From Jimgerdemannia flammicorona (taxonomy: Eukaryota), in the NCBI GenBank assembly GCA_003990765.1, contig RBNJ01000087.1, forward strand, positions 1-42,591: 42,591 nucleotides of DNA, given 5' to 3'. The position numbers were made by a program, and so were the translations under genes. The notes under the pieces are model-generated. The model had not been told where the DNA came from, searched no databases, and saw only the letters and a list, made by a program, of their open reading frames with translations. Position 1 is the stretch's first letter, and each line of letters starts with the position of its first letter. Shown in pieces: positions 745-42,591 of the stretch.

Positions 745-775
<31 letters not shown>

Positions 776-8136: not shown

Positions 8137-8187
<51 letters not shown>

Positions 8188-18516: not shown

Positions 18517-18547
<31 letters not shown>

Positions 18548-19200: not shown

Positions 19201-19496
19201 CACATTGAATTCATGTCGAATTGTACCACTTCGAATCATTCGAATCAAAGTACATTTATTGTTTCTTCACTAAATAAATGTAGGACAAACAGTTTTGTGA
19301 TGCAGGCCGTGTTGTCTCTGCATTTCTGCAAAGACACATACGATATATATATGGGTATTTATTTGATGAATACAAAATATTGTGGACGGCAAGCTCATCT
19401 CTTGGATGGGATCGATCGTCGAAATACTTCATGCAATGGTATTAATTAAAAGGCGGAATTCAAATTTGCTCAGCGTGTGAGGTGGAGCAAGATCTA

Positions 19497-20832: not shown

Positions 20833-21239
20833 CATGTTTCAAATTCAACCAACTGATACTTGATTGTCGACCATAACTAATGCTCCAGGGCCTATTCACA
20901 CGGTTTATCGACAGACCCCATATGTGTCAGATTATCGAAGTGTTGATTTGCTAATCCGAATTCTTCACATTATGCCCTCTGCAATGTGGAATGATCGGTC
21001 GCACGACCACCATCCCTTTGAGGATGCCCGGCATTCACTCTCGCAGCATGACCAAATGATTATATTTATTTATTATTTAAAATAATAGTACACTTTTATT
21101 AAATTTATTAAAATAAATTAGGTATATTATTTAGAGTAGTTTATTTTTTATTTTATTTTTATTTTTAAATTTTAAAAGATATTTCTTAATTTATCGTCAC
21201 AATTATAAATATGCATACTATATATATATATATATGATG

Positions 21240-21972
21240 TTGATGAATTCGTTCCGGTTGCGACTCGATTTTCGACGATACCCGCAACCGGAAACGTCGG
21301 CGTATATACAGAAAATTTAATCAGTGGATGGGAATGATGACACGTGAGTGGTGATATTGGGAACATGGAAGGCAAGACGTTGGTTGGGTGGGGATGGGGT
21401 GAAGAGGATGACGAGATGATTGAATATGAGGACAGGGAGGGTGGTGATGAGCGGACGTCCAGGACGAGGATGGTTATGGCAGCGATACCCACCATGGACA
21501 GTGGGGGGTGATCCAAAATGGAGACCGAGGGTGATGATGAAACGAGCAAGCCTGCTGGGGTGCTCAGGTCGGATGACCCGATCACAAACCGCACAACCAC
21601 ATCGACTTCGATGCAGCCAGCATGAAGTCTGCATCAGCAGCTATGAGAGGTCCAAGAAATGCTCAGTCAATGCCTGGTTGTTACCAATGCCTTAGCGGTA
21701 GAACAGAGAACATCACCCTTGTCATATAGTGATTACAAATCTTCAATATAGGATGTCTTTGTTTGTATATATACAGGTTCTGGATTATGAGATCTTCTAA
21801 CCTATTCTATTTTATATATTATTATACTTTTTATTTTATTTTTTCTTTCCTCTCACATATTATATCTTTTAGATTATTTTATGGTTTACAGATATATTTA
21901 TTTGAAAAATAGATAAAAATAAAGTTAATTATAAAATAATAATAATAATAATATATCAATAGCTTAGATTAT
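21240..21972 (+). repeat. Direct repeat copy B (~0.73 kb, with small extra segments relative to A)
   Basis: Same-orientation homolog of 17639-18270. Confidence 0.92.
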
Positions 21973-23159
21973 ATACTGATGATATTTATAGAATGATATA
22001 GTCAGGCTATACTACTATATATTACGTATCTAGATGACTGAAAAAGATCTAAATTTCCTGCTTAAAAGTATAAAAATAGGTCAATGGAATAGTGAAAAAT
22101 AGAAATTCTATATAATTTTAATAAAAGATCAATAATATAAATCCAGATCTATTTATAAATAAAGAGATGTAAGTAATGTTAAAGATATTTATTAGTGCTT
22201 TAAAAAACTTTCTATTATTACTATATAATCATTATTACTTACTGCTTACTAGTATAGAATTACTATTTACTAATATAGAATTACTACTTACTGATGTAGA
22301 ATTATCCATAAGTCTCATTTCTTATATATATAAGTCAAACTTTATTTAGAGAAGATCTTTAGTCAATAAATCTACTATTATATATTCTGTTAGCTATATA
22401 TTAATATGTTTTATTCTAGCATAATATATAGAGTTCTTTGCTATAGTAATGGTACTCTACTTGTATAGATAATGTTGCTATAAAAGATTACTTATATATT
22501 TGCTATGAAATAGCTCTGTTTTTGCTGATTTGAAAGAGGTATTCAGTCTTAAATATACATAGTATATAATATATCAGATCTTATTTTAAGTATAAGATAT
22601 ATGAGGGATTCTATAACTTACTAATAGAGAATATTATTATCTTCAGATATAGTATTACTAAACTTCTTTAGTCTTATAAATATCTCTATAAGTATTCTGA
22701 CTAACTTGTATTTGCTTATACTAAATTATTCAAGTATAGTCTAAATATATATAGCTTGTAATAGATATACATATAGCATATTTATATCTATTATATATAA
22801 TTAATATTCTAAGAAGATAGAATATATTATCTATATCTATCATCTTGAATTTCTGATATAGTGTTATTTTGACTTCATTAATCTCACTTACTATTCTGAC
22901 CAGAATGATATTATCTATCCAAATTTCTAGGTATACTATTTCTGAGGATATATGTTAGATATATATATATTGGTCAGCCTCATAATACTTAAATCTGTTA
23001 TCTAAAGAGTATTTATTAATTTTTTTTAGTTATACAGCCTTACTACTTATTTAATACCATAAAGACCTTTATATAATTTATATATAAGCTCATTTCTATT
23101 ATTGTTATATAATTTATATTATAGTAGTGAATATATATATAGTTCTATATCTATATTAC

Positions 23160-24824
23160 TATAATAGAATAAGTAGTAAGTGAATAGACAAGATGTAATA
23201 TATAATGAGTAATTATATAACCTAGCAATGATATCACTATTGATTGAGCATAATATATGATATATGAATAACAAATATAATAAATGATGTAAATAATGTA
23301 GAAAACAATATCTAGCTTATCTCTAGCAATCAGTACTATAGTAACTAGTACTAATTATTGCTTAGCAATAGAGATCTTGATCATAAAGTATTTTTGATTA
23401 CAAACTACCTGATAAAGATTGTAATTACAAAGATGGCTAGTTCTTGTAATGTATCAATAAGATAAAAAAAAAAGTGGCCCAAGATTTGTCAACCCTATAT
23501 AACTATAATTGCAATATGGTGATATTTTGGAAATTAGGATTTTCTCATATAACTAGTACATATTCTACTTATAGTAATAGGTCACACATCTTACTAGAAA
23601 ATGTGATTGAAATGAAGTTACACCAAACAGGTGAACAAGTATAAATACCCAAAGTAAGAGCATACTACAACTCTCATCTCCCTCTCCTCTCTCTAAAGAA
23701 AAGACAAGATAAGAATGCCTGCTACCTACCACCAAGTAGCCTATCATAGCCAGCCCCTCTCAAGCCAGATTGACTGCCTTTTTGGATACATTTAGGTTAC
23801 TATCCAAGGAAGAAACCTACCACTTTGAGACCCTTAATCTTACTAGTCAGAACCTAGAATATTATATCCTCAACTACTATAAAGTCATCAAAAGAGCCTA
23901 CCTTACTATCAGCTATCTAGAAATCTAATATGAATACAAAATTAGCCATTAACTTCTTTAATATACAAATGGCCTACCCACTGACCAGATCTCAGACTGG
24001 ACCAATCTAGATAGATATAAGTAAAGACTAATCAAGAAGATTCATCAAATTATATACTATGTACTCTTTGTAATTCCCAACTCCAACTATATATAACTAA
24101 AGGATTTCCAGAACCTTTTCTTCTCTAAGGTTGATAAACTAGAGATCAAGGTTGTCTAAGAAGCTAACTTCTGAATTACTCTCAAGTCTACTAACTGTAA
24201 ACTCTACTGGAGCTCTCTCTTGAATGATAACTCAGACCAATGGCTCCAAGGTCTCTCTGATCTCTTTGAAGGACTGTCTATCTGAATAGATATCTCCAGG
24301 CATAAGGATCAAGAACTCTACTTAGATGGTCCTAACCATATTAGATAGAGACCTCTACCCCACTGTCTATATCAGTTCAAAAACCATTTGTAGACCTCAT
24401 TGACTTCTCTATTCTGGATACTGAGCCATCAGCAACTACTTCTTCAACTACTAGTAGAGATGGAAATAATACTGAGAAGGATTCCCCACTCTTTTCTCTC
24501 CTAGTTCTCAATTTCTGAATCAATAAGAATATTGATTTTTAAGGAGAAAAAGATGTAATAGAATGAGTAGCAAGTAAATAGATGAGATATGATATATGAT
24601 AAGTAATTATAACTCAATAATGATATTACCATCAATTGAGTACAATATATAATATATGAATGATAAATATAATAAACAATACAAATGATGTAGAAAATGA
24701 CATTTAGCTTATCTTTAGCAATTAGTACTATAGTAACTCATACTGATCATTGCTTAGTAATAGAGATCCTGATTACAAAGTTATATTCCTAATTACAAAC
24801 TATCTGACAAAGGTTGTGATTATA
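23160..24824 (+). mobile_element. Internally deleted Ty3/Gypsy-like LTR element with paired ~270 bp LTRs
   Basis: LTRs 23160-23429 (TAT..TTACA) and 24554-24824 (TGT..TTATA). PBS-like TGGC follows LTR1 and polypurine tract aaggagaaaaaga precedes LTR2. Gag-like relic YTNGLP. Confidence 0.8.
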
Positions 24825-27118
24825 AACCTCACTATAGTTATCAAATTAGTTACTTATACTTAGTCAGAAATTGCAGACCAACTTATATAAATACTCTCTA
24901 GTTTTTATCTGAAATAAAGATAGTTTTAGTTTAGTTCTTGATACAAGAATCAAGTTTCCCTCTATACACATATATTCTCCTGAGTTTTAGTAATAATATC
25001 TAAGTGACTCTAGTGTTTCTGACTAAACTTTAGAAGCCTAGCTAACTTCTACCAGAACTGAGACTAGTATATAAATAATAAAGACTTAAGTAAACCCATT
25101 GAACCTAAATTTTAAGACAAATTCTGTCTATATATATATAGTAAAGAACAAGTCCCTTACAACTATGGTTGATAAGAAGGATACTACTGCTACAACTATT
25201 TTCAAGTAAGCACTTCCTCATACTAAAGGCTTCTTGGTATATATTGTATATTAAGTCTCTAAGTAATACCTTGTTTCACTAATTATCCAAAAGATAAAAG
25301 AGAAATAGAAATAAGAGTTATTACAATCACTATTCAAAAAGACTGTCTTAATATCTATTTAGTGGATTTTATAGTTATATTTAGCTCCAATTACAAGAAG
25401 TATTCAAAGTGAAATACTATAAAAAAGATCTCATTATAGTCTATATCATATTTTTATAAATACTCCTTTGCTACAAATTGAGTCTTATACTACTTTATAT
25501 CACTATTACTATTATGTTTAATTTTATATATCTATTGAAATTCTATAGCTTATTAATTTACTAGGAGAGGGACCAAATCTCATATGTCATTTTTGATAAG
25601 TAAATAATATTTCTCATCTATAGTCTTTTTCTACTTCTTTCTATCATTCAAATATAGCTTCATTATAGTTTATAGGTTCACTAGTTATTATAATATAGAT
25701 ACACTCATAGGTATAGTTTATATGATATTTGCTATTATGATAGAATATCTTAAGCTAGTCTTAATAATCTTCTAAATCTGCTTTGACTTTATTTTATAGT
25801 CTAGATCTGTACTTTTTCTTATCTTTTAGAGAGGTATTCTTATTATTATTCTTGTCTATAATTTCTATAATTCTTAGCTCTGATAGTCATATTGATATAT
25901 ATATATATTACACTAGTACTGATATAGGTATTATTTTGCTCATTTTTAAAGTTGGTATAAATGTCACTAGCTATACCATTGAGTTAGTAGAGATAGAAAT
26001 TTTAATACAAATCATCTACTCTTTAGTCTTTTTCTTGAATTGAATATCATAAGAGATAATGATATAGTATTTCTATAAATTCTATACATATATATTTATC
26101 TATTTTAGACTCAAATTTGTCTCTATTATTACCCTTATCTAAGATATAAGTCTCACTTTCAAATATTTGTAAATGTAAAATATCAGACTTAGATCTACTC
26201 TATAATTCTTCAGAAGTATGATCAGTATTATTTTTGAATTACTAATTATTATTAAATCTATCAGAATTCTTACTTAAAGTTTAAGAAACACAATAATTCT
26301 AGGTATATACTACTATATTCACTACTTTGATCCAAAAGGAGTACAGTAAACTAGTTATATTTATCATTATTTGAGCTATCTCTACTATTATTTAGTTAAA
26401 GCATTCTGCTATACTGTTCTATTCAGATATATAGGGAGCTATTATAGAGTATTATATATCATACTTCTTAAGAAGTATTTAAAGGCTTTGTTGATATATT
26501 TTTTACTATTATCTGAGTATAGAGTTTATATCTTATATCTTGTTTTATTTTCTATAATCATTTTGAATTCTTAAAATTTTTTAAATATCTCATTCTTCAC
26601 TATAAGAAAGTATATATAGATTTTATAAGTATAATCATTAATAAAGATGATAAAGTACCTCTTTTCAAAGTATGTTGAAGTTTATATAGGGCTGTAGATA
26701 TCTGTAATATTATATTAAGAATGCTGGTTACTCACTTTATCTATTTCTAAAATGATTGCTAGAAAGTCTTATTTATTATATATCTATTATAAAAGCTAAA
26801 ATCTGGTAGTATATAGTTTGATAATCTATATATAGATTTACTTGTTATTATCTATTCCAGGCTTGTTTTACTGATATATCTTAAGTATTCATACTATATA
26901 TACTAGAGATTCTCTCTGATTATAGTTATAGAATATAGATGATATATTATTTAATATACCATTGATTATATATAGGTTTCTCTTTTTTGATATATATATT
27001 AGCTTATTATTCTTTAGATTAATTACTATCATACTATTTAGATATATATTTACTCTTTTATCTTCTTGAGCTATTATATGATCTATTAAGAAGAGGTTCT
27101 TACCTATATCTGGTATAT

Positions 27119-28335
27119 TTTTTATTTTTTTTTTATTTTTATTTTTTATTTTTTTTTATTTTACAGACTCAGAGTCTCACAGATTTTTATTAGAAGGGAA
27201 TCTAGACTATATAGGCCAAAACCCTCCTCCACTACCCATCAAGCACTACTCTCTCATTAACTTAGGTTAGCTATTGTCCAGCAGCTTGATCATATCAGGT
27301 ACAGTAGGATCTATATTGGCCCATATCTCATTTTATATACTATACTCTCCCTACTACTAAGGAGAACTCAGCTATATGCCAATGACCAAAAGCACATACC
27401 TGAGACTCCACCATATATACAAGACCATACCTGAGCTGAATAGAATAGCCCCTACTACTCCAAAGAGAATGATAGACAAAGAAAAAACTCTCATCAAAGT
27501 ATATTATGGTGGGTAGGGTCTGGTTCTCCCAGATGAGGTGAGTAGAGGACTTATATATGAAGTAAGAGGAGACCTCCAATACTTCACTACTCAAGCCTGC
27601 AGATCTTGATCACATTGCTATATTAGCTCTTGGTTTTAGTTAAGTATAGCCAAGATGCCTAAAATGGATAGTCTCAGGCCCCCCAACTCCCCCCCAATAA
27701 CCAGGGCCCAATCTGCCAAATTGCTAAAAGAAGCTGAGAGTGATACCTACTATCTAACTGCTCTGCACCAATCAAAAGGCCCTATAGAAGCAGTATCTAC
27801 CCCAGCCCTAATGACTGCCCCCAGTCTAGCACTCTACTGATTTACTGTAATTACCCTTCCTCTTATCTATGATGGCCATCTCCTCTCTTATTCTGATAAT
27901 ACCTAAAAAACAGCCACCTATGTTAGAACTATACTCATCAAGAAGCTTGCTAAAGCCAGAGAGCCCCACCATAGACACTAAGGACCTACAGATAACCTAT
28001 ACTGGACACTTAATGTCTAAGATTGGCTGACTCCCTACATAATCCATAATGTACCAAGATAACATCTTATTGGTGATGGCAAAAGGAAGAAGATGCCACA
28101 CCAAAATGAGTATACTCCAGATACAGCTGAAGGCACCAGAATCTATGAAAAAGTAGAGAAGACACCGATCTGATACTAATAAAGAGACAACTCATCACTA
28201 TTGCTCTCCTTCCACTATATCCATACAGGCACAGCAAACCAACCTGAGGTAGAGGGGGTAATAATAGGGGAAAGGAGACTTGAAAGGTTATCTACTAAAC
28301 CTTGTGACTAGTAAGATAGCAGAGAAAGAAGCTGT
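27119..28335 (-). mobile_element. 5'-truncated poly(A) retro-insertion (LINE 3' end or retrocopy) inside Copia #1
   Basis: Poly(T) tract ~27119-27162 on the + strand. Perfect 15-bp TSD ctatatctggtatat at 27104-27118 and 28336-28350. A long, mostly open minus-strand frame. Confidence 0.85.
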
Positions 28336-29870
28336 CTATATCTGGTATATATAATACATATATCCATAAAGATGTCTGAAGATTTATCAATATTCCTGTA
28401 TAGATATATACCAACATTGCTCTAGCCTTGAGTATAAATGACATTATTATCACCCAATTTGATAGATATAGAGTGCTTGAACTTCTCATATATAGAGAAC
28501 TAATAATATGCTATTATATACTATATTGCATTAGAATCTATAAGCCAGATCTCTTTGCTATATATATTAGTACTGCTAGATATATAACTTATATTGGTAC
28601 TAGTACTGAAATAGATAGAACTAGTGATTGGAGTATTTTTTATTAGTATAAAAATAGTTTCTGAATTTACTCTTATATCTATCTCTATAAAGAATAGATC
28701 TCTACTACTATTGTTATTAGTATTCATAATGTTCACCTGCCTATATTACTCATCTTTTTCCTTCTTTTTATAGTTATAGTCTTGCTTGCAGTATCTATAC
28801 TTATCACAGTAGAAGTATTTATTATTGAATTTGGCTTATTGACTGTTATGCTAACTATCATACTACTGACTTTGATCTCATTCTTTATCTTATTCTGTCT
28901 GTTGTTATTATCTTTATCTTATCTATATACTCCATAGAAGGCTTTCTTATCATCTTTATTATCATTACTACCTAGCCTTGATTCTTTATTTAAAAGACTT
29001 ATAACAATAGGCTTATAGTCTAATAATCTGTCAGATTCTCTCATAGTAGTAACAACTATATTATATATCTTGATTAGGTCTCATATAAGAACTAGGACCT
29101 TTTTTATCCTTGATAGTATCTGTTAGTATAGATATAAGAGAATTCACTTAATTCATCAGTTATTAACATAATTGATATAGTCTTAGATGCTCTCCTTAGA
29201 CTTTATTTAGAGATTGAATAGTTATACTTTTAGGTGAAATCTATTAGATATAGATACCTATTGGTAGTAATTATATAAGATCTCTCAGACTTCATTTACT
29301 ATTATAGTATTGATTATAAGTTTTATTTATATATTTGAAAAGATAAATATAATCTCTCCTAGTGCTTTGTAATCTTTCATAATATCATATTTTATTATTT
29401 ATACTTGTGGTTTTCAGTAGTCCTCCAAACTATATTTCTCTAAGAGATTTTTTATATGATATCTATATGGTATAATTCTTACTATTAAAGATAGAAATCA
29501 TTCTCTTTACTATTATTAGCACTACTGTAAGAATATTGTTATAGTTGTAACTATTATAATAGGTGCACTTATACTACTAGTACCTATTCTGGATTCTATT
29601 CTGCCTATACTACTTAGTAGGCTCATATTTGATATACTTGGGTTTCCTAGGTTTGATATCTTCTTTGCATAGTATAGTATATATATTAGAGAGATATATA
29701 TATATTTGTTATAGAATACTTGAAAGATAGATAGAGAAAAAAAGGGTAGTATTTATTTATAGATAGCTTATCTGCTTTTATACATATTGATGATATTTAT
29801 ATAATAATATAATTAGACTATACCACTATATATAAAGTTACTATAACTAAGATATTTCAATATTTCAATA

Positions 29871-31781
29871 CTCTTGCTCAATAAGATATATCCAAATATA
29901 TTTACAAATAAAAATATATAAGTAATATTAATGAATATATATATAATATGTAAGATATAATGAGAGGCTTTTAGTACTCTAAAAAACTTCTTATTATTGC
30001 TATATTGTTGTTATTATTTTTGCTTATTGCTTACTAACATATAGTTTCTGTTAGTATAGAGTTACCTGTAAGTCTTATTTCTTATATGCATAAATCAAAC
30101 TTAGCCTTTGGAAGGGCTTTAGTCAATAAATCTACTATTATATACTCTATTGAGATATATTCTAGATATGTATATAGTACTATTTTCTATATATTTTTTT
30201 ATAAATAATATTATATATCAATATGTTTGATTTTTGCATAATATATAGAATTCTTTATCATAGTAATTATAGATTGACTGTCTTGTTGAAGTAGTATAGA
30301 GTGCTGTTAATTATATTCTAACTCCTTTAGTAGTTTCTGAAGTCATATAGCTTCCTTTATTACTGTAGATAATACTTGATACTCTTCTTATATAGATAAT
30401 ATTACTACTGAAGTTTACTTATATATTTGTCATGAAATAACTCCATTTTCACTGATTTTAAAGAGGTATTTAGTTATAGATCATCTGTCATCTAGGTCAT
30501 TAGTCTAATTGGCATTATATATACTTAATAACTTTATAGTACTCCTGCTTTTTCCCTTATTATAATTATCCAAATTGAGTATATAGTATACTGTATCTTT
30601 AATATACTAGAAATTATACTTGATTGCCATCTAATGTAAATTTTTATAGTAGAATGAGTATTGTACTACTTTGTTAACTATATATATATAATATATTAGA
30701 TCTCATCCTAAGCATAAGATATATGTATGAGAGATTCTATAGCTTACTAATAGAAGATATTATTATCTTTAGAAATAGTACTGAACTTCTTTAGCCTTAC
30801 AGATATCTCTATAAGAGTTCTAATAGATTTATATTTATCTATACTGAATCATTTGAGTATGGTCTAAATATATGTAACTTATGATAGATATATAGTATGC
30901 TCATATCTGTCATATATGATTAATATTCTAATAAGATAGAACATATTACCCATATCTTCAATTTTGAATTTCTAGTATAATATTATCTTTATATTATTAA
31001 TCTTACTTATCATTCTGATCAAAATGATATCATTAATCCAAATTCCTAGATATATTATTCCTGAGAATATATATTGAGTATATATATATAGATTGGTCTT
31101 GCAATACTTAAATCTATTATTTAAGAGATATTTGTTAAATTTTTAATTCTACAGTCTTGCTGCTTGTTTGATACTATAGAGACCTTTATATAACTTATAT
31201 ACAAGCTTGTTTCTATCATTATATAATTTATATTCTTATGGTTAATAGATATATAGCTCCATATTTATATCTCTATTTAAGAAGGCTGTCTTAATATCTA
31301 TTTAGTAAATTTTATAGTTATATTTAGCTCTAATCACAAGAAATATTCTAAGTGAAGTAAGTTGAATACTGAAGAAAAGATCTCATTATAGTCTATCTAT
31401 ATTCTTGTAAATATCTCTTTATCACAAATTGGACCTTATACTACTCTATATCACTATTACTATTATATTTGATTTTATATACTCAGCAGAATTCTATTGC
31501 TTATCAATTTATCAGAAGAGAAACTAGATCTCATGTATCATTCTTAATAAGTAAATCATATTCCTTATCTATAGCCTTTTACTATTTATTCTTATTATCT
31601 AAGTATATGGTATCATCATAGTTTGCTGGCTCACCAGTTATTGCTATGTAAGTATACTTATAGATATAGTTTATATAATGTTTGCTATTGCAATAGAATG
31701 TCTTTCAATATTCTCCTAAATCTGCTTTGACTTTATTTTATAATCTAGATTTGTATTTTTTCTTACCTTTTAAAGAGATAT
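29871..31781 (-). mobile_element. Degenerate Ty1/Copia #2 (RT-RNase H), same family as #1
   Basis: Collinear with 22180-23159 plus 25326-25840. A PPT-like TGAGCAAGAG (minus strand) abuts the LTR at 29870. Confidence 0.88.
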
Positions 31782-33249
31782 TGTTATAAAGAGAGGGGCA
31801 TTTTTATTGAAGTTATATGGATTATATATTTGATACTTTACTGATAAATAATGTAAATCTGATAGAATAGTATAAGATCATATGCTGACATATTGAGTTA
31901 CTATCTCAATACTCCTACTTAATGAGATATATAATCCAAAAAGAATACAACATATATCCAAAAAAAAGAATGCAAACTAGAAAAAGCAATGCATAATATA
32001 TATAAAACTAGAACTATATAACTCAATTTACTATATAAAAATCCTATATTTAAGGAATTTTTATAGGTTGAAAAGTATTCCAAAATACTCAAAATATCTG
32101 AAATATCTATAAATGAAAAATGTAAAGAATGTAATATATGTAATTCTCTTATAGATAAGTGATATAACTAACATATATACAGTGTAAGACTTTTAATAGT
32201 CTGAAAAGTATTTTATAATCAATTGCATACTAGTGTATAGCTTTTAAGATCTATTTCTTTAGTATATTACTTAAACTTCAGCTTTGGAAGGACTTTGGTC
32301 AATGAGTCTGCAATCATATACTCTATGGAGATATATTCTAAGTATATAGTACCATTTTCTATATATTCTTATATAAAATAATGCTATATATTAATATGTT
32401 TCATTCAGCTATAATACATATACTGGATTCTTGGTAAGCACTATTATGAATTGGTTATCTTGTCTGATCAGTATAAGGTTCCTCTGAGTAAAGCTGAGCT
32501 CCTTTAAAAGCTTACAGAGCCAAATAGCCTCCTTTGTTACCAATGACAATACCTGATACTCTGCTTATATGTTTACTATAAAATGATGGACTCTTTGTTG
32601 TTTTTGTCAATATAGAAAAAATATCTAGTCATAGACTGGCAATCATCCAAATCTCTGGCCCAATCAGTATCACATATATCAGATAGCTAGATGTTGTTGC
32701 TCTTGTCATTACTTCTACTTAATCTAATATCACTACTATCTAATATAAGTATATAGTATACTAATCTCTTTAAGTATTGGAAAATCCTCTTAATAGTACT
32801 CCAATGTGAATTATCATAGCAGGAGGAATACTGTGTTACCTTATTGATAATATAGGATATATCAGGCCTTATTTCAAGTATAAGATATATGAGAGAACTG
32901 ACTATTTGCCAATAAGAAATATTGTTGATAGGCTTAAGTATATTGTCATTTGTTTTAGACATAGTAACAGGCTTCCTTAACTTTATAGAAGTATCTATCA
33001 GAGTACTTACAGACTTGCATTCACTTATATTAAAGTATTTGAGGATAGCTTTGACATATATCATTTGTGAGAAATATATAGTATATATATTTCTATCATA
33101 TATAATGGATATCCTCAAAAGAAAGAATGCATCACTCATATTAGTCATCTTGAATTCTTAGTATAGAGCTTCTTTAACTCTATTAAGCCTATTCTTACTA
33201 GTAATAATAATTATATCATCAATCTATATATTAATGAATACTATACTGT

Positions 33250-33252
<3 letters not shown>

Positions 33253-33284
<32 letters not shown>

Positions 33285-33378
33285 GTTGCTCAGACTCTGC
33301 CATTTATTATCAGTCTATATATAATTATATTATCTTCTCTCACTACCCAATCCCTATAGGGGAACTCTCCTCTCCTAT
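33253..33378 (-). mobile_element. Short poly(A) retro-insertion (~126 bp) in the RT of Copia #3
   Basis: Poly(T) 33252-33281 and AATAAA on the minus strand. 16-bp TSD aatactatactgtcat (33237-33252) versus aatattatactatcat (33379-33394). Confidence 0.8.
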
Positions 33379-34025
33379 AATATTATACTATCATAATAAT
33401 ATTAGATATATATATAATTATCTACTTCACAATATATAAATCTATTATTAAGTAGATACTTATTGATTCTTTTATTCTATAGTTATACCACTTGCTTGAT
33501 GCTGTATAGTCTCTTATATAATCTATATATGAGCTTGCTGTTTTTATATTCTTGTGGTTGATAGATATATAGTTTAGTATCTATATCACTATTTAGAAAT
33601 ACTATCTTACATTTATTTGATGGATTTTGAGATCATATACTATACCAATTGTAAGAAGTATTCTAAGAGAAGTAAGCTTAAATACTGGTGAAAAATTTCA
33701 TCATAGTCTATACTATAATCTTCCAAATAATCCTTAGTAACAAAATAAGCTTTATATTGCTCTATATTACTATTAGTATTACACTTTATTCTATATATCT
33801 ACTTGGATCTAATTGCTTGATGGTTTGGTAAAAAATGCACTAGGTTCCAGATATCATTCTCAATGAGCAAATTATATTCCTCATCTATTACATATTCTCA
33901 TTTCTTACTATCTGAGCATTACATAGCCTCATTATATACACTTAGCTCACCAGAAGATGTTGTGATATATATGCATTCATATGCTTCAGCATAGCTCACA
34001 TGGTCTTAATATTGCTGCTTCTAGG

Positions 34026-34561
34026 TAGTACTCTAAATGAGTCAATATGGATGAGATTCAAATCAACTATTGTTTTTATTTCCAAATTAAACAATTAAAC
34101 ATTTACATCAATAACTTGATGAATAATTATCCAAATTTGATGATCTTAGCATCATTTGAAAGCCCTTAATAAGGTCTTTCTAATGATATCAAGAATATTA
34201 AAATCTGATTATGCATTGCTAAGATATTAAGGAAACTGTTCTATTTGACAAAATTTCCAAAATTAGCAATTCAGACATTTTCCTTCATAACTCAGCAACA
34301 TATGATCTGATTTCAATGTTCTTGGTATCATTAGATAGGCCTTATTAAGGGCTTTCAAATGACACCAAAATCATCAAATTTGGATGATTATTTATTGAGT
34401 TATTAATATAAACATTTAATTGTCTAATTTGGAAATCAAAACAATGATTGGTTCAAATCTATCTGGATGGGATTTGAATCCCATCTGAGTCAATCCAGAT
34501 AGGAATCAATCCAAATCAATCTGAATCTAATCCAGATTAAATTGATTCATTAGGAGTACTA
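34026..34561. mobile_element. Non-autonomous TIR element (hAT-like ends) containing a long foldback palindrome
   Basis: TIRs tagtactctaaatgagtcaat and attgattcattaggagtacta. Internal inverted repeat ~34070-34445. Homologous to 18820-19200. Confidence 0.8.
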
Positions 34562-34837
34562 TGTTTAGAGCTTACTAATATATCACAATAACTTTCTAAT
34601 TCTGAATATATTTTATTCCTAAGCTTATGCTTGCCCTTACCCTTGATGGAGGATTCCTCATCATTAGATTCACCATCATCTTCATCTTTGATCTCAGTGA
34701 TCCTTGGCTCAGACAACTCTGGCTCAGATATATATAGTAGTTGATAATAATTTAAATTCACTACTAGAATCATTAGAGATATTGGCAGCACTAGGTATTG
34801 TGCTGGCTGGAATATAGATATAGAGATCTCCATGGGC

Positions 34838-35180
34838 TAGTGCTCCAAATGAGTCAATTTAAATCAAATACAGATTCAATTTATCATATAATAGTTTGAC
34901 CCAAATCTTAAATCTAAAGTAATCTGAATCAACTTGAATTAATCTGAATTACCTCATCCAAATTACTCCATCTGAATCACCTATCTGAATTACTCTATTT
35001 GAATTACTCCATCTGAACCACTCAATATAAACTATTCAATCTGAATTACTCAATCTGAATTACTCAATCTGAATTATTTAATTTAAATTCTTCAATCTGA
35101 ATTCTCATCTGAATCCTTTAACTGAATCCTCCAATCTAAATCCTCTAATTCAAATCCTCTAATCTGAATCCTCCACATAA
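34838..35180 (+). mobile_element. One end of a TIR element with subterminal ~14-bp tandem repeats
   Basis: Starts TAGTGCTCCAAATGAGTCAAT, the same TIR as at 34026. Repeated tctgaattactc(c/a)a units at ~34920-35175. Confidence 0.7.
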
Positions 35181-37699
35181 CTTATATGCTAGACATGTCC
35201 ATATTGTAATGTGTCTGGCTCAATAGTGGCAAATTACAAGGTTGGGAGTTGATGTAGTTTGGCTTGAGCCCCCAGTTACTTTGTCAAAAGCAATAAAATT
35301 TTCTTATAGTTCCTGAGGTCCTTGGTGGTATTTAGTGGTATAATATTTAAAGCTAGATATCTGTGAGCAATTCTGATGATTTTCTTATTGAGACAGATTT
35401 TTAGATATAGTGATAATTTTGTATGTATGGCATAGGCAATTTGTATAATAGTCTCTATATAATATAATAATCTTCTTATATATGACAATCTGGTAATTTA
35501 GCAGTTTTCCTTCTTAGGTAGTAGTGATCTCTACATGATAATCTCTATATAGTGTGATAATCTCCAAAAGTATGTAATTTCTATGTGATAATCTTAGTAG
35601 TACTCCTTATGCAGATTTAGTGAATAACTTAATTTGGTATAGATTTTCCTGAATCAGACTTACTGGGAATAACAACTTGACAGTTCTTCTAGGAATGACA
35701 GATAATTTAGATAGCATAGATTCTTCTGAATTGGCTCACTGGGAATTGTACTGATGGCAGATAATTTGGATAACTCAGATAACTCAGATATTGTAGATTC
35801 TTCCTGAATTGACTCACTGGAAACATGTGAATAACTTGAATGATACAGATAATTTGGATAACTTGGATGTCATGGATTCTTGGCAAAGTTATATCAAAGG
35901 CTAGCTTCATTTGTACAAATGAGTCATTGCAAAGTTGTATTAAGAGACTGACTTGTGGTAAGGTTCCTTATAGCAGGCTCTCTAGAAATGCAGATAACTT
36001 GGAAATAGTGGTGAAGTCCTTCACTTGAACTAGGCAGAAAACTGCAGCTTATTCCTTAAGTGGTAGATTTTTCTTCAAAAAGTAGTAAAGTTCTTTCTTG
36101 AACTTTGACAGCAAATCTTCTGACTTAGTCTGGCAAGCATACCAATCAATCTTTGTATTGGAAAGTGGATTAGAGTAAAAAGAAGACCAATGCTCAATCT
36201 TTAGAGGCTTCTTTGGTATTTGTATTTCAGACTAAGGTTTATTTACTCTTATCTCTAGAGTATTTTATACATTGTGGTTGCTATCTGATTGCTATCTGGA
36301 TAATTATAGATTTACCATTTCTGGTAATATTTGGATATATCCATAGGACATAAGCATGTCCACCAGATATAGGTGTATCTTCAGGACACAGATAAATAAC
36401 CCTAATTCAGTATTCTGACTAATTATAAGTATAACATATATAAGTAACTATAATATACTGAGAGTTTGTGTTATCTGGCTATATTATACTATTTGCTCAT
36501 CACATCAGCCCCTACTGAAGGATAGTTTGTCTCAGACTATTCTTCAGTCATCATCTTAATAAGTATAAGTAGCTTCTACATATATACTAGTTCTATCATC
36601 TTCATTATCTATACTATAGTCACTCTATTCTAAAGGCTCTTCTTCTTTCTTGGGAAATAGGATCTCAACTTGGTGAATAATACTGAGGTAGATAGACAGG
36701 GTCATTTTTTGGAGATTATTTAGAGAGAACTAGGCCTAGATTAGAGCTGAAGGGTTTCATTTGTAGATTGTGTATAATATTTCTATAGCAGTAGTATTTC
36801 TTCTGTTTAGGTCAGTAGTGTTATAAATATAGGCTAGGTCTGAGAGAAGAAGATCTATAATTATTCTCCAATTGTATAGTAGGCTTACAGCTAGTAGACC
36901 TAGAGTAGTCTCTCAACCAGAGTGAGGTTTTCTTAATGGACCTGGATTCTTTGAAGATATATTTCTAGTGCTCTGCAAACCCAATCCGATTAACCTGAAA
37001 CCTGACCTGTAAAACAGCCAACCCAGAATTAGATATCACTTGTCTTTAATCCAATTCAGAATTATACATCACCCATCTTTAACCCAACCTAGAATTATAC
37101 ATCACCTGACTTTAACCTGATCTAGAATTATACATCACCTATCTTTAACCCAACCCAGAAAGATACATTACCCATCTTTAATCTGACCCAGAATTAAATA
37201 TAACCCATCTTTAATCTGATCTGGAAATATATGTCACCTGATCTATTATTTACCCTTAACCCAAACCTAAATCTGACCTCTGAACCTGACCCTGAACCCA
37301 ACCTCTGAACCCGACCCTGAACTCAACCCTCTGAACTCTGCCCTGAAAAAATGATTCAGATAATATTTAGATAATATTCAGAGCAATTAGAAGTGAAAAA
37401 TATCTGAAGACCACCAAGAATCCAAAAATATGTATATATAAATTGTATTTATACACAAGCTGTTTTGACATTCAGTTCTTAGCTTACTAGCAATAGAAAA
37501 AATACATTCAGATAGAACAGATGTTACCAAAATAACAAAATAATTATAAGCCATTTGTGAAAGATTAAGATATACTGACTGATTTCACTATCACCAATCC
37601 AGTATATCTATATGAGGATTAGCTAAATTCTCTGACAAATAATTGAAATAGAGAAATATGAGTGAAAATTAACCAAGTCAACCAAAAAACATAAAAACA

Positions 37700-39550
37700 A
37701 CACTCACTATTCAAGCTCATCATCTATATCAACATGCTGTTTCTTCTCATATATTAAGTTGATAAAATCATTGGCATTACAGGATATTGAGGATATAATG
37801 ATAGTATTAACAGGCTTATACTCTTTTTCCCAGATACATTCTATCTGATTCTTCCATTCATCAATTAAGGATTTTTTCTATTGCTCATAATGGAAATAAT
37901 ACATATTGATATATGGATCTAAGACTGAAGCTATGCTGTATAATAGTGTCATCTTGTAGTAATACTTTAGAAGTTTCATATGTATTCTTAGCAGCAGTAA
38001 GTATTATCTATAAAAAATAAAAAATAAATGGAAATATATACATATTACTTCCCAATTACTTACTAAATTAGTTCCTAAATTCACAAATAAAATTACTTTC
38101 AAAATCATATATATATCTAATTAAAATGTTCATCAGTTTGATATATCGATAACATCTTCAAGATGATCATATAGCCAATTAAATAGTGAGATAACAGCCA
38201 CTATTATAGAATACTTCAAAGCTGATATTACAGTTGTCACTTTGGCAAAAGGCTTGAGAAATCAGCAAATCAATTCAAATTATTGCTATATATTTTCAGA
38301 TATATTGCTCATTTGCTTATCTATGATATATAATATATCTAAGCCCTATTTAGATATAATATCAATTTATTTAGTACCAAAATACTTCTGAATCATATTC
38401 CAAAATCTATACAAATAGATTCAAAATCTTACCTTATGAATCTTCAGAGCATATACTAACATTTCATGTATAGAACTCCATCTTGTCATAATATCTAAGA
38501 GAGGCTTCAAAATAGGAATTCCAGAGGATTTACAGACCTTCATCAGTTATACTTGTCATTGTACTGAATTTTTGATCTTCTTTATTAACTCTTGTAGCTT
38601 TCCAATGGATTCACTAAGAGAACCAAGAGCATCATAAATAACAAGATTCAACATATGTCCGAAATAGTATATATGAGCAAGCAGATGATGGAGATTCTCA
38701 AACAGAGTATTATTATTACTGGTATTGTCACATACAACAGTAATGATTTGATTATCACTAGGCAATAAATCATCTATTATCAGCTCCAGACTTTTTACAA
38801 GATTGGTACCCATGTATATTATTTCACTGATATTTACAAAGTCTAAGATAATGTCATATATCTTCCAATCACTGTCAATCCAATGGGCTGTTATTCTAAG
38901 GAAGGCCTTGATGTTAATATCTGATATCTAATAATCAAGTATAAGTGATGCCTTCGACTTGAGCCCTACTAGCCTTGCTTTTACTTGAGTCTATAATAGT
39001 TCAAATTTCTTTCAAATAACTCACAAAATTATATCAGTCAATGGAAATTTTTATCACTTAAAGTCTTGTTAGTATATTCCTATTTGTAATAATAAAATTT
39101 GATGAATTATTTTCTAATAACCTCCTAAGTACTTCTTGAATTCCATTCTATCCATACTTATAATATCATTTTTCTTAGACCAGTAAGGATTCTCAGCATG
39201 CTGGAGAGGTAAGAGTATGGTATTGTGATGCTTTCAGAGATGTCATTTAAGATTATTGATATATATTACTGTCCTTTGATATATAGCTCCAAGTTATACA
39301 ATGGTTGCAACTAATGAACTTACTTTATAAATTCTATTTGAATAGAGAGATATGAGACTATATTAAAACCTCAACTACTTACAACTGATCATCCTTATGA
39401 CTGACCACCCTTATGACTGATGAGACCAACTACCTCTATAAATGTAACTATTAGTATAATGTATAAAACTACCTTTGTGGAATAATTCCATACTTAGCTA
39501 TTATCAGATTTTGTTTTTATTTTTATTCTCATGCTCATTGGTGATAATGA
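37700..39550 (-). pseudogene. hAT transposase pseudogene with introns
   Basis: Motifs ASLILDY*ISD..AFLRITAHWID, VVCDNTSNN, HIYYFGHMLNLVI, LLDIMTRWSS and ASVLDP, plus a BED-finger-like CNHC near 39305. Many stop codons. Confidence 0.88.
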
Positions 39551-40050
39551 ACTAGTGGAGATATCTGATATATCCTCCAATATATCCTCTGATATATTCT
39601 CCAATATATCATCCAATAGTTCTGCGATTTCTCCTAAATATACTTCTTAATCTTTAGATATATTAAAAAGTATTTAATGATAGCAGGGACTGAGAGCTTG
39701 AGTGGGAGGCTGAGAGCTGGAAAGTGACTAGGAAGTGGTGAGTTAGGGAGTGGCAAACTGGGGAATGAGCTGGGGGGGTAGTGAACTAGGGGGTGGGGAG
39801 TTGGGGGGAGGCAGTGAGTGATAGAGAAAGCCAGGAACTGTGGGGCCTGGAACAGGAGTCAGTAAGCTGGGGGGCAGCAAGATGGAGAGCAGCAAGATAG
39901 CAGCATAAGATATGATAGCTAATGATCAATTGTGGATAGAGGATAGATGAATAAATATACACAGGTAGTAAACTGGTACCTATTATACAACTGCAAACAG
40001 CAAACATACTTTGGAGATTTAATGTGTTCTATATGATTTAGCATATTTTG

Positions 40051-40580
40051 TATAAGCCCCAATTGAGCAAGGTTTGCAATAATGTTTGAGCAAGATTTGT
40101 AGTACATTTGAGCAAGATTTGCAGTGAGGTTCAAGTAAGATTTGTAAGCAAGATTAAAGTGAGATTTGTAAGTAAGATTAAAGTGAGATTTGTAAGCAAG
40201 ATTAAAGCAAGATTTGTAAGTAAGATTAAAGCAAGATTTGTATAAGCCAGGCTTTGCAAGTTTTGTGCTTACAAGTCTAGATAAGCTCAGTTACAAGCTG
40301 ATATGATATGTATATAAGCTGATATCACATAATATCAGCTATCAGCTAAGCTTACAAGTACAAGGCTTGCAAAGCCTGGCTTATATAAATCTCACTTTAA
40401 TCTTACTTACAAATCTCACTCAAACCTCACTGCAAATCTTACTGCAAATCTTACTCAAATGCACCACAAATCTTACTCAAATATCATTGCAAACCTTGCT
40501 CCACTCAGTCTGACAGGCTAATAATAAGCTGATATCATATGATATCAGCTATCAGCTGAGTGGAGCAAAGCTTGCACTTA
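40051..40580. repeat. Nested foldback/MITE complex with a 20-bp tandem array
   Basis: Inverted arms ~40064-40275 and ~40350-40503. About five gatttgtaag(c/t)aagattaaa units at 40139-40240. Inner perfect inverted repeat tataagccaggctttgcaag (40241) and cttgcaaagcctggcttata (ending 40385). Confidence 0.8.
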
Positions 40581-41329
40581 TGTTTATACTTATGCTTACA
40601 ATCCAGAGCTTTTCTTACTATATTTTACTCCTCTTGTATTCCACTCCTCTTGTACAACCCTCACATATTCCTCTACCTCCCTCACTCTCATTTCTCAGAT
40701 TGCAAACAATATGCAATTTAGAAATGGATTTTGAAAGAGATTTTGAAGAGATTCTAAAAGAGATTTTAAAAAGATTCTGAAAGAGCTTCTGAAAGAGATT
40801 TTGGAGAGATTCTGAAAGAGCTTCTGAAAGATATTATTTAAGATATCAAAATCTTACTTTTATCTCTCATTCTTTTCATCTTGTCCTTTACTTCACCTCA
40901 TCCTTTGCTTTGTCTCACTTAATTCACTGCTATGTTGAGAAAATATAGATATGACTGCCTGGCCAATAAGTATTTACTTGGCCCCCCTCAAGCTCAATGC
41001 ACTTCAGCTCACCATTCTAAAGCTTGGCACTCTAAAGATGCTCAGCTTACCAATACCCAGTCTGCTGAGCTTGCCAACATCCAGCCTGCTGAGCTTACTG
41101 ACACTCAGATTGCTGAGCTTGCCAACTCCCAGTTTGCTGACCCTTAGCTCTCTGATCTCCAGCTTGACCACCAGCTCACTACTGGTCTATAAGCATAAGG
41201 TCCCTCACCAGATCCCAATAATGTAGCTTGAAAAAGTTAATTTTTGTTTTTTTTTCTTTTTAAATCAATGTTTGAATTTTTTTCCTAATAACATTCGAAA
41301 TATACATATCCTCCAGCTTCTAAGCCTGG

Positions 41330-42157
41330 GCCAGAGTACAAATCTTGCTACAATTGCCATTTTTGCCATTAAGTTTACCCAAGCACTATCTGGAAGCATT
41401 GTCAAACCAATTTCTCAGATACCCTAAACCTCATAGAGAAAAGACCTTACAAATCAAACATTAAGCATACTTTCACTGTAGCCAATAAATATATTAAGAA
41501 AGTACATGATGACTAACTGAGGCAAAAAGTCATAAGAGTGATAGAAAACTATATGAAAATTATAGAATATTTATCATACTATACCAGCTTCAAGGTGAAT
41601 ACCAAAACATAGAACAAGCAAGATTGTCCAGATGAAATTATCATCATAGATGAATATAAAAAACTGCTGGCCATATTTGAATGAGTACTGGTGAAGAATG
41701 ACAAAATACTTTATATATGACTAATAGATAGCAGGCTTGTGTATTTTGTTGAAGAGGGTAGTGGTGAAGAAGATAGAGAGGTGGGAGAGGTCAGTATGGA
41801 GGAGGTTGGTGTGGGGGATGTTGGCATAGAGAAATATGGGGAGGTTAGTATAGAGGAGATCAGTACAGGAGAGGTTGGTGCAGAGGAACATGAGAGGTTG
41901 GCATGGGGAAGGTCAGCATAGAGGAACATGGAGAGGTTGGCATGGGGAGATTAGTACAGAGGAACATGAAGGTTGGTGCAGAGGAATACAGGGAGGTCAG
42001 TGTGGAGGATGAAATGAAGGTTAGTGTAGAGGAGGTTAGTGTAGAGAAGAATATAAAGAAGGATGATATAGAGGAAAGTGGTTTGGAATATATAGAGGAA
42101 GATGGTTTGGAATATGAGAAGGAGAAGGATCAGTTGGTTTATAGCAATGAAGAGTAA
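41330..42157 (+). pseudogene. Second, divergently oriented ORF relic inside the hAT element, with an acidic C-terminus
   Basis: One frame reads LIEKRPYKSNIKHTF..VHDD*LRQKVIRVIENY..CPDEIIIIDEYKKLLAIFE*VLVKND.., with stops that C>T/G>A changes could explain, followed by E-rich repeats. Confidence 0.55.
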
Positions 42158-42591
42158 GATCTGTTCACACTAGTGAGTTCTTTATTTTTCTGATTTACTT
42201 CCTATTTATTTCTGATTTCATTTTGATTTCTGATTCCTAATTATATTTCTATTTATTTATTCTAAATATATATCTTATATATGCAATATATATTTTTTTA
42301 TAGCTTGTAGCTTAAAGATGGGTCACATATATTTCTTAGATCAGGTTAAAGACAGATTATGTATAATTCTAGATCAGATTAAAGATGAGTGATATATATT
42401 TCTGGGTTGGGTTAAAGATGGGTGATATTTGATTCTGGGTTGGGTTAAAGATAGGTGATATGTATTTCTGAATCAGGTTAAAGATAGGTGATATATATTT
42501 CCAGATAGGGTTAAAGATAGGTTATATATAATTTCAGGTTAACTGTTTTACAGATTGGGTTTTGAGTTAATCAGGTCAAGTTTGTAGAATA

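Follow-up and report, generated by a model that had tools for sequence, protein, structure and literature searches.

In the repeat-induced point mutation (RIP) of Pezizomycotina, directional C>T and G>A changes affect both strands of repeats only, create stop codons and leave AT-rich blocks beside genes of normal GC content. The target order in Neurospora is CpA > CpT > CpG > CpC, and Aspergillus-type variants of RIP target CpG and CpA. For Zymoseptoria tritici a mutator is reported in which Dim2 drives mitotic C>T changes, including CpA>TpA, in transposons and 5mC regions; the changes are cumulative and meiosis is not needed (PMC8016269). In Pucciniomycotina, repeats of a non-ascomycete lineage carry a TpCpG hypermutation with CpG as the prime target (Horns et al. 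2012, PMC3318451). Within the Mucoromycota, most transposons of Rhizophagus irregularis are described as high in mCG and a DNMT1-related enzyme is expressed there (PMC8647823). Mucoromycotina are reported to have an enzyme of the DIM-2 type (Phycomyces; PMC7862722, PMC13297926), and Phycomyces has enzymes of both the DNMT1 and the Dim-2 type, with methylation of 2.2% in CG and 0.3-0.5% in non-CG context (PMC7862722).

Here, we describe a locus of Jimgerdemannia flammicorona that departs from these systems. The window, i.e. the whole stretch of DNA analysed, comprises 42,591 nucleotides. Its KpsF protein matched best to Endogone sp. FLAS-F59071 (81% identity), followed by Bifiguratus, Umbelopsis and Glomeromycotina (58-59%). 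Judged by this placement the host is an Endogonales fungus (Mucoromycota), and thus an early-diverging fungus, as an earlier note on this DNA had considered, and not an ascomycete. From 21.7 to 42.6 kb, dead transposons form a nest with cytosine-specific C>T mutation, which is limited to this zone. The zone contains three Copia copies, a nested LTR element, a foldback MITE and a hAT element, and its AT-rich block (GC 0.22-0.30) adjoins genes of 50% GC. The following features were used in the analysis.

17631 to 18271, plus strand: segmental duplicate of 21232-21975, control for background substitution (629 aligned bp)
18878 to 19200, no strand assigned: sister copy of the MITE in the gene-rich part (aligned 18870-19210; CpG kept, 18877-19042)
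21697 to 42591, no strand assigned: CpG-void AT-rich zone, GC 0.292; runs to the contig end, so this extent is a minimum
22558 to 29326, minus strand: Copia-1, a degenerate Ty1/Copia element found with a profile of 11 Copia polyproteins against the six-frame translation; pieces are gag (28401-29326), integrase (26077-26705), RT (25320-25645) and RT/RNase H (22558-23112)
23162 to 24826, no strand assigned: insertion nested in Copia-1, with direct repeats (LTRs) at 23162-23431 and 24556-24826
30079 to 31659, minus strand: Copia-2, RT/RNase H fragment (profile positions 814-1335, domain E-values 1e-10 to 2.9e-38)
32240 to 33996, minus strand: Copia-3, RT/RNase H fragment (profile positions 807-1340)
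34054 to 34460, no strand assigned: foldback/MITE-like element, CpG-free, with arms 34054-34239 and 34275-34460 (82% complementary)
34461 to 36971, no strand assigned: CpG-free DNA that falls in no class, with a 14-bp tandem array at 34942-35108
36972 to 42588, minus strand: hAT DNA transposon with a broken transposase at 37405-39047

The composition shifts between the last CpG cluster (21696) and about 21976-22129. The segment 21700-21975 has a homologous copy at 18053-18271, relative to which it shows no stronger C>T shift (10 vs 8 for the latter), so the transposon zone proper begins near 21976-22129. DNA homology of Copia-1 with the other copies starts at 22129 and picks up again at 25326, past the nested insertion; its Pfam matches were weak and lay under the curated cut-offs (Retrotran_gag_2, E=3.7e-4; SH3_retrovirus, E=0.0099). 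Homology of Copia-2 covers 29878-31787, with 79.7% identity to Copia-1 over 1503 bp, and Copia-3 is 67% identical to both. The LTRs of the nested element share 80.6% identity over 273 bp (self-BLAST). The hAT transposase was matched by a profile of 45 hAT transposases (E=6.2e-67 and 3.9e-15) and had 1631 relatives by phmmer at E<=0.001; its 33-bp subterminal repeats lie within terminal inverted regions at 36972-37238 and 42321-42588 (inverted repeat, 76-77%). No Pfam family was detected in the six frames of 34461-36971 at E<=0.01, and these 2.5 kb without a recognisable transposon domain are likewise CpG-free. Two codon strings quoted in the earlier note as decayed motifs were located on the minus strand, that of the integrase at about 26392-26442 and that of the hAT element at 38922-38945, the latter as a single match that occurred in 0 of 100 shuffles.

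The window holds 1281 CpG dinucleotides, just 9 of them beyond 21696. Across 21700-42591 (20,892 bp, GC 0.292) these 9 compare with 445.9 expected (O/E 0.02), and mapping of all CpG positions gave none from 28166 to 36987; the region is nearly CpG-free, as had been noticed before. CpG O/E was 0.83-1.18 in all 11 2-kb windows starting at 1-20001 and 0.00-0.08 in all 11 starting at 22001-42001, with a value of 1.01 for the genic part as a whole. Between 21.7 and 34 kb the O/E values were 1.25 for TA, 0.81 for CA, 0.92 for TG, 1.46 for CT and 1.51 for AG. From 34 to 42.6 kb they were 0.03 for CG, 0.95 for TA, 1.14 for CA and 1.12 for TG, and the genic part had a TA value of 0.72. The TpA richness ascribed to the entire region thus holds for the first part and not for the second. 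Remaining cytosines are concentrated in CpT/ApG (genic CT 0.89, AG 0.87). CpG was lost zone-wide while CA and TG differ between the two parts, which points to a graded and gradual process. In 34-42.6 kb, CpG depletion went along with a gain in TpG/CpA, confined to transposons next to CpG-normal genes, as is expected of 5mC deamination.

The direction of change was determined with 11 outside polyproteins as reference: 358 Copia codons aligned with residues that are conserved in 80% or more of them. These codons carried 159 C>T or G>A changes (58 and 101, respectively), 4 T>C or A>G changes and 54 transversions, an excess over both the reverse changes and transversions such as RIP leaves in repeats. 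At codon positions 1 and 2, transitions had occurred at 155 of 377.7 ancestral G/C sites (41%) compared with 4 of 338.3 A/T sites (1.2%). Of 42 codons for Q, H, W and C, in which CpA/TpG is unambiguous, 21 had turned into codons containing TA, while none of 14 Tyr codons had made the opposite change to His or Cys (Fisher p=8e-4). Mutation was therefore not restricted to CpG, and CAG>TAG, TGG>TAG and TGT>TAT indeed go beyond CpG deamination, as the earlier note had argued. Conserved Gly codons (GGN) were kept in just 2 of 41 cases. By the same per-site measure, the hAT element had transitions at 21.3 of 76.8 G/C sites (28%) and at 4 of 105.2 A/T sites (3.8%), and the non-CpG load of the MITE was weak (34 vs 17). 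Hypermutation across all repeats, as claimed earlier, is thus strong in its non-CpG part for Copia, weaker for hAT and weak for the MITE. The KpsF control gene showed no bias (145 of 159 conserved codons identical; C>T 3.0, A>G 4.3), and on this control the codon-polarity method is unbiased. When the three Copia copies were polarised by majority rule among themselves, T>C (192) apparently outnumbered C>T (122); the outgroup analysis supports reading this excess as probable convergent C>T in two of the three copies, of which the DNA-only data are no proof.

In the three Copia copies, the estimated loss per copy depended on the 3' neighbour (CpG 0.90, CpA 0.655, CpC 0.52, CpT 0.245), and all 28 reconstructed CpG sites were hit in at least one copy. 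Loss at CHG (0.40) and CHH (0.465) did not differ. A context dependence of this kind resembles that of an enzyme. Since CpC was mutated as well as CpA, the process does not target CpA specifically; the earlier claim that CpA/TpG is targeted as well as CpG stands insofar as both are hit, and fails for CpA as a specific signature.

True RIP, in which a premeiotic C>T mutator of the RID/Masc1 type is triggered by homology and acts on duplicates with a CpG/CpA preference, appears rather unlikely. The locus resembles Pezizomycotina RIP in its directional changes on both strands of repeats, its stop codons and the position of the AT-rich block next to GC-normal genes, and every multi-copy family in the zone is affected. 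The thresholds for RIP are TpA/ApT >= 0.89 and (CpA+TpG)/(ApC+GpT) <= 1.03. The most affected part has an excess of TpA (TpA/ApT 1.04-1.17 across 22-34 kb) and the composite index exceeded 0 in 4 of the 11 zone windows of 2 kb, but both classical indices were passed in only 3 of these 11 (starting at 22001, 24001 and 28001) and in 0 of 11 genic windows. The order CpG >> CpA > CpC > CpT, with CpG first, CpT least targeted and CpA not preferred, is not that of Neurospora. In two runs of this organism, contigs with at least 80% identity to the zone differed from it by 316 transitions to 25 transversions (X1) and by 301 to 35 (X2), a ratio among copies of 8.6-12.6 that fits RIP and, as evidence from beyond the window, also the methyltransferase-linked reading given below; strand-wise runs of C>T versus G>A were not seen (z -0.6 to -1.4). 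The genic sister copy of the MITE is unmutated though repeated, and its 10 aligned CpGs read CA (5), TG (3), TA (1) and AT (1) in the zone; against RIP this is a weak point, given the short length of the genic copy (about 320 bp). A RID-type gene is retained in Glomeromycotina, but RID and DNMT5 are described as lost in the sister clades of this group in Mucoromycota (PMC8298701). A positive RIP index is reported outside Dikarya for Zoophthora (PMC11105155), whereas RIP signatures are given as undetected in Gigaspora or Mucoromycotina (PMC8647823, citing Venice 2020) and a kingdom-wide k-mer screen places them in Ascomycota only (PMC12543289). Of the RIP-like reading in the earlier note, the non-CpG excess, which persisted after normalisation per site, and the early-diverging host remain, and RIP itself is left as a rather unlikely option; neither an ascomycete host nor a lack of non-CpG excess, both named there as grounds against the reading, was found. 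Our best guess is a process that is RIP-like in outcome, not in context preference.

Old transposon relics could also have decayed under ordinary AT-biased mutation, a GC>AT bias being common among eukaryotes, together with ordinary CpG methylation. The elements are old: the LTRs of the nested element, identical at insertion, now differ by 56 transitions and 14 transversions over about 270 bp, so a long time has elapsed, and Copia-1 and Copia-2 differ by 52 transversions in 1503 bp. The 5' LTR opens with TATAATAG (TA) and the 3' LTR with TGTAATAG (TG), which, in the one case checked, agrees with the reported change of LTR ends from TG to TA. AT-rich intergenic stretches occur in the genic part as well (e.g. 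GC 0.08 at 18301-18600); however, its AT-rich 300-bp windows keep their CpG (52 observed, 44.8 expected). The control duplicate pair had 50 transitions and 21 transversions (ts/tv 2.4) with symmetric direction (27 vs 23), i.e. 7.9% unbiased transitions at 3.3% transversions, compared with 16.8% at 3.5% for Copia-1 and Copia-2. Together with KpsF and the genic MITE copy, which keeps the CpGs missing from its counterpart in the zone, these controls confine the C>T excess to the transposon zone, as had been proposed. If rates of 41% and 1.2% per site were ordinary, the equilibrium GC content would be a few percent, and the sparing of CpT with enrichment of CT/AG is unexpected under a context-free bias. 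We regard ordinary decay as improbable; the window already points to a far lower and symmetric spectrum in neutral DNA outside the zone.

Editing of retroelement cDNA or ssDNA by an AID/APOBEC-like deaminase, before or during integration, would yield directional C>T/G>A changes with many stop codons, and deaminase-fold genes are widespread in eukaryotes. It is very unlikely here, as the 5' neighbour was without effect (loss flat at 0.44-0.57), the strands were equally affected (C>T/G>A 116/103, 141/119 and 96/80), the DNA transposons hAT and MITE were hit as well, and the LTR pair of a single insertion accumulated its differences in place. An assembly or sequencing artefact, in favour of which nothing was found, can practically be dismissed, since the pattern follows element boundaries and reading frames and contigs of two further runs, possibly not independent of the assembly's own sample, were at least 99% identical to segments of the zone (2 of 104 aligned contigs in one run and 4 of 106 in the other).

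The reading towards which we lean fits better than canonical RIP, drift alone or editing of the APOBEC type: the zone would be the footprint of a DNA-methyltransferase-linked process on transposon heterochromatin, the enzyme link being an inference. Dense CpG methylation of the DNMT1 type would lead to removal of CpG via 5mC deamination. CpA and CpC would then be converted more slowly by a non-CpG component, either methylation or mutagenesis of the DIM-2 type. Changes would build up with time in the domain and not in one burst. The Copia block is furthest along (GC 0.22-0.27, down from at least 0.37), and hAT and MITE have lost CpG while TpG/CpA products are still present; at one locus, age and hypermutation load are inseparable. 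The outcome is RIP-like, with stop codons, AT-rich blocks and permanent inactivation. Methylated vertebrate DNA has a CpG O/E of about 0.2. The value of 0.02 in the zone is far lower, so plain spontaneous deamination may be too slow.

The known systems each share part of this picture. CpG as prime target in non-ascomycete repeats recalls the Pucciniomycotina, and the CpG O/E of 0.03 with TpG/CpA excess recalls 5mC-driven decay of methylated transposons, but the large non-CpG part (21 of 42 clean codons) is unlike both. The 5' T effect of Pucciniomycotina is missing at non-CpG sites of the zone and is unreadable at CpG, where no CpG survives. With the Dim2 mutator of Zymoseptoria the zone shares C>T in transposons including CpA>TpA; however, the order there, with more than 98% of changes at CpA and CpG spared (PMC8016269), is opposite to the zone, where CpG was lost first and completely and CpC was hit. 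R. irregularis is of the same phylum and has transposon-targeted CG methylation, but that work, as far as its account goes, reports methylation and no mutational scar (PMC8647823), and the zone is such a scar. A 2026 review describes 5mC in early-diverging fungi as near-undetectable, which runs counter to a methylation reading (PMC13297926). A more specific version, which we put forward tentatively, is that Endogonales have an active transposon-directed cytosine mutator with the 3' order G >> A > C > T, acting on both strands with no 5' motif, and of DNMT1/DIM-2 type rather than RID.

In the accounts consulted, RIP-like scars are confined to Ascomycota (PMC12543289) and none are reported for Mucoromycotina (PMC8647823, citing Venice 2020). 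The zone departs from both, with a CpG O/E of 0.02 and about 40% of the remaining G/C converted to A/T in a context-dependent manner (41% being the Copia figure). Because conversion of CpG to TpG/CpA refills the substrate term of the RIP index, such scars would escape standard RIP indices. If the pattern is genome-wide, cytosine-directed mutagenesis of transposons would have an earlier origin or a wider spread among fungi than assumed so far. If the mutator reading is true, methyltransferase-linked mutagenic defence either predates Dikarya or re-arose in Mucoromycota, and it could help explain how Jimgerdemannia, whose genomes are said to be up to 77% repeats (PMC10386755), keeps its transposons dead. 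The DNMT1/DIM-2 genes and the methylome of this repeat-rich mycorrhizal lineage are the target that results.

CpG dinucleotides are nearly absent from the transposon zone, which runs from ~21.7 kb to the contig end. The window holds 1281 CpG, only 9 of which lie past position 21696; in 21700-42591, 9 were observed versus 445.9 expected, in agreement with the nearly CpG-free region claimed in the earlier note. GC content in the gene-rich part (1 to ~21.7 kb) is 0.39-0.59 per kb, one AT-rich kb excepted. AT-richness alone does not explain the void, since AT-rich genic windows keep their expected CpG: in the first 17.5 kb, the five windows (300 bp) whose GC was <0.40 contained 52 CpG (44.8 expected), and the remaining 61 windows before 21.7 kb (300 bp, GC at least 0.40) contained 1171 (1171.6 expected). 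An AT-rich island at 18001-18900, with an extreme GC of 0.08 at 18301-18600, carried 8 CpG versus 7.2 expected in three windows. It shows no depletion and is therefore a different kind of sequence from the zone. Within the zone two grades were visible. GC was 0.267 at 21.7-34 kb, with observed/expected ratios of 1.25 for TpA, 0.81 for CpA and 0.92 for TpG; the corresponding values at 34-42.6 kb were 0.329, 0.95, 1.14 and 1.12. CpT/ApG ratios were raised to 1.46/1.51 and 1.28/1.26, respectively, versus 0.89/0.87 in the genic part, and GpC was normal in both grades.

The zone was mapped by self-BLAST, repeat finding and profiles made from outside homologues. A Pfam scan of six frames, translated in pieces with X at stops, gave two sub-threshold matches only on Copia and no match in any frame of 34460-36972 (2.5 kb).

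Elements of the transposon zone
22558-29326, minus strand: Copia-1, a degenerate Ty1/Copia copy found with the outside-homologue profile; gag 28401-29326, integrase 26077-26705, reverse transcriptase (RT) 25320-25645 and 22558-23112
23162-24826: insertion nested in Copia-1, with 270-bp LTRs at 23162-23431 and 24556-24826
30079-31659, minus strand: Copia-2, RT/RNase H fragment of the same family
32240-33996, minus strand: Copia-3, a second such fragment
34054-34460: foldback MITE, with a sister copy in the genic part at 18878-19200
36972-42588: hAT transposon; its ends are inverted and its transposase (37405-39047) is broken

The integrase and hAT-motif codon strings given in the earlier note were both found where it had placed them. 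The two inverted hAT ends carry 33-bp subterminal tandem repeats of 5-6 units (36992-37255 and 42311-42540), which may be transposase-binding arrays. Short tandem arrays also occur at 34942-35108 (14 bp), 40123-40242 (24 bp), 40704-40841 (12 bp) and 41039-41158 (24 bp). The zone also contains a hairpin (40110-40501).

DNA copies alone give no direction of mutation. Majority-rule polarisation of the three Copia copies yielded 192 T>C versus 122 C>T changes. It was not kept for inferring direction, since under saturation T in two of the three copies is likely; saturating convergent C>T would also produce the apparent T>C excess. Polarity was therefore anchored on proteins from outside the genome. 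Eleven Copia polyproteins, 24-34% identical and mainly of plant and metagenome origin, were aligned into a profile. The six frames of the window, with stops masked as X, were then aligned to this profile, and codons were scored where the residue was common to at least 80% of these proteins. Of 358 conserved codons, 170 still encode the ancestral residue. The cheapest paths to the altered codons comprised 101 G>A, 58 C>T, 4 T>C plus A>G, and 54 transversions. At codon positions 1 and 2, ancestral G/C (377.7 sites) had undergone 155 transitions and 18.7 transversions, versus 4 and 23.3 at ancestral A/T (338.3 sites). When the same pipeline was applied to the intact KpsF gene as a control, 145/159 codons were identical, with 3.0 C>T and 4.3 A>G changes; the method is therefore not the source of the bias. 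The hAT transposase has mutated in the same direction under a lighter load. In columns at least 80% conserved, 31/44 residues were identical, with 12 C>T/G>A changes, 1 reverse change and no transversions; at 60% or more, the counts were 22.3, 4 and 4.7. Transitions affected 28% of G/C versus 3.8% of A/T sites. Cys, Trp, His, Gly, Ala and Val of P0145, an 81% identical hAT fragment, correspond to Tyr, stop, Tyr, Arg, Thr and Ile in the window, as judged by eye on the alignment.

Dinucleotide context was unambiguous at codons that fix both bases. Trp (TGG) had become TAG in 7/15 and TGA in 4/15 cases, Cys had become TAY in 7/8, Gln TAA in 5/13 and His TAY in 2/6. CpA/TpG>TpA thus amounts to 21/42 at Trp, Cys, Gln and His, versus 0/14 for the reverse change of Tyr to a His or Cys codon (Fisher p = 8e-4). 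Only 2/41 Gly codons were still GGN, and 6/16 Arg codons had become TAY or TAA, which requires a CpG change followed by a non-CpG change. Between Copia-1 and Copia-2, CA stood against TA at 100 of 253 transition differences, and their common dinucleotides included only 33 CA/TG versus 211 TA. For the loss model, C or G in any copy was taken as ancestral, and a per-copy loss probability was fitted to the three-copy patterns. It was 0.90 at CpG, 0.655 at CpA, 0.52 at CpC and 0.245 at CpT, and ranged from 0.44 to 0.57 across all 5' neighbours. CHG (0.40) and CHH (0.465) did not differ among the three Copia copies. C>T and G>A were near equal in each copy (116/103, 141/119 and 96/80).

A segment present twice in the CpG-normal part (17631-18271 and 21232-21975) provided the background. 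This pair differs by 50 transitions and 21 transversions (71 differences) in 629 aligned bp, with a symmetric direction (27 versus 23), and no spill of mutation was detected in its last 239 bp at 21700-21975 (10 versus 8). One copy of the duplication is without a 30-nt and a 31-nt block. Copia-1 and Copia-2 show a similar transversion load (52/1503) and 253 transitions. The LTR pair of the nested element was identical when inserted and has since accumulated 56 transition and 14 transversion differences. Where the genic MITE copy has 10 aligned CpGs, the zone copy reads CA (5), TG (3), TA (1) and AT (1); overall, 34 C>T/G>A changes, 17 reverse changes and 34 transversions separate the two. The symmetric control pair, the Copia transition load and the MITE comparison therefore tie the process to the transposon zone. 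The elements are old; CpG was lost first and completely, other cytosines more slowly.

Two public runs from the same organism (X1 and X2, run type uncertain) contain 0.60 and 0.54 of the words sampled from the genic stretch. At a likeness of at least 80%, 104 and 106 of their contigs were placed on 21000-40999; since most are <90% alike, they mainly represent other copies. Relative to the window, the X1 contigs showed 316 transitions and 25 transversions, and the X2 contigs 301 and 35. The window has T/A against contig C/G at 198 places in X1 (opposite, 118) and 182 in X2 (119). Sister copies elsewhere thus diverge almost exclusively through transitions and were struck at different sites. Contigs placed on 21232-21975 carry exactly the 30-nt and 31-nt gaps and therefore probably derive from the 17631-18271 copy. 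Summed contig depth was highest at 27003-28336 (176-519 in X1), which is thus probably a further nested, abundant repeat. Within the Copia block, AT-richness is lowest in this segment (GC 0.378, GC skew -0.23), which occupies the expected place of the Copia protease, yet is ~1.2 kb too long. Contig joints hinted at an inverted repeat within 27.0-28.4 kb; none was found by BLAST. For the hAT family, P0145, P0146 and P0150 are ORF fragments 60-81% identical on metagenome contigs of 0.6-2.1 kb, which indicates that the family, or its host lineage, occurs in environmental samples. A search of metagenomes for close sister hAT copies matched 8 loci at 24-41% identity, none of them close, and these were left out of the analysis.

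The host was placed by a protein encoded left of the zone.

Genes of the gene-rich part
GH47 mannosidase, two exons (Pfam Glyco_hydro_47, E 5e-48 and 8.5e-38)
8843-9895, minus strand: KpsF/GutQ sugar isomerase (arabinose-5-phosphate isomerase; SIS and CBS domains)
Kelch-repeat gene

KpsF matched Endogone sp. FLAS-F59071 best (81% identity), and the next named matches, at 58-59%, were Bifiguratus, Umbelopsis, Ambispora and Paraglomus. Judged from this protein, the host belongs to the Endogonales (Mucoromycota) rather than to the Ascomycota, and the early-diverging host considered possible in the earlier note is borne out. KpsF homologues occur in Mucoromycota and Basidiobolus (48-59% identity) and in Bdellovibrionota bacteria (52-53%); it looks like an old bacterial-type gene retained in early-diverging fungi. 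Intergenic long poly-A/T and (AAG)n-like tracts at 8098-8200 and 653-1141 result in poly-Lys/poly-Phe reading frames.

The process is cytosine-specific, limited to the zone, equal on both strands and dependent on the 3' neighbour. This dependence fits enzymes reading the base 3' of cytosine, i.e. DNA methyltransferases. We favor, with moderate confidence, methylation-linked deamination of transposon heterochromatin, in which DNA methyltransferases would act on the transposons and deamination would proceed through a fast arm at CpG and a slower arm at CpH. Phycomyces is described as having DNMT1 and a Dim-2-type enzyme, with CG exceeding non-CG methylation (PMC7862722), and most R. irregularis transposons as having high mCG (PMC8647823).

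True homology-triggered RIP is rather unlikely. The block resembles a RIPped isochore, but its context order is different and the classical indices mostly fail: both passed in only 3/11 zone windows of 2 kb, and the composite index was positive in 4/11. Strand-wise runs, as in RIP-like processivity, were absent among the three Copia copies (z -0.97, -0.63 and -1.41). The literature also suggests that RID is missing in the host's subphylum: all five 5mC methyltransferase types are described as kept in Glomeromycotina, and DNMT5 and RID as lost in Mucoromycota sister clades (PMC8298701). The scar is like RIP in outcome, but fails the Neurospora-type context test. The interpretation in the earlier note is partly supported: the early-diverging host holds, the non-CpG excess stands after normalisation, and the genome-defence system it points to is a candidate mechanism. 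APOBEC-type editing is argued against, as the 5' motif, strand asymmetry and limitation to retroelements expected of it run contrary to the observed profile. Ordinary AT-biased drift is opposed by a per-site ratio of 34 to 1, the sparing of CpT, the CpG kept in AT-rich genic DNA and the symmetric control pair.

General 5mC decay and the TpCpG hypermutation described for Pucciniomycotina (PMC3318451) share CpG targeting with the scar, which adds a large non-CpG component. In Zymoseptoria, a mitotic, Dim2-driven C>T mutator acts in methylated repeats (PMC8016269); the CpA component is common to both, but this mutator, as described there, spares CpG and the zone scar does not. A kingdom-wide screen reports repeat-enriched mutation signatures in Ascomycota only (PMC12543289), and Dallaire et al., citing Venice 2020, give RIP signatures as undetected in Mucoromycotina (PMC8647823). 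A positive RIP index is reported for Zoophthora (Zoopagomycota) (PMC11105155). Our literature search found no RIP-like or CpG-void transposon scar described in Endogonales; the texts or supplements of Chang 2019, on Endogonales genomes, and Bewick 2019 could contain one. We rate the zone scar as a new form of an already known phenomenon, from a single locus.
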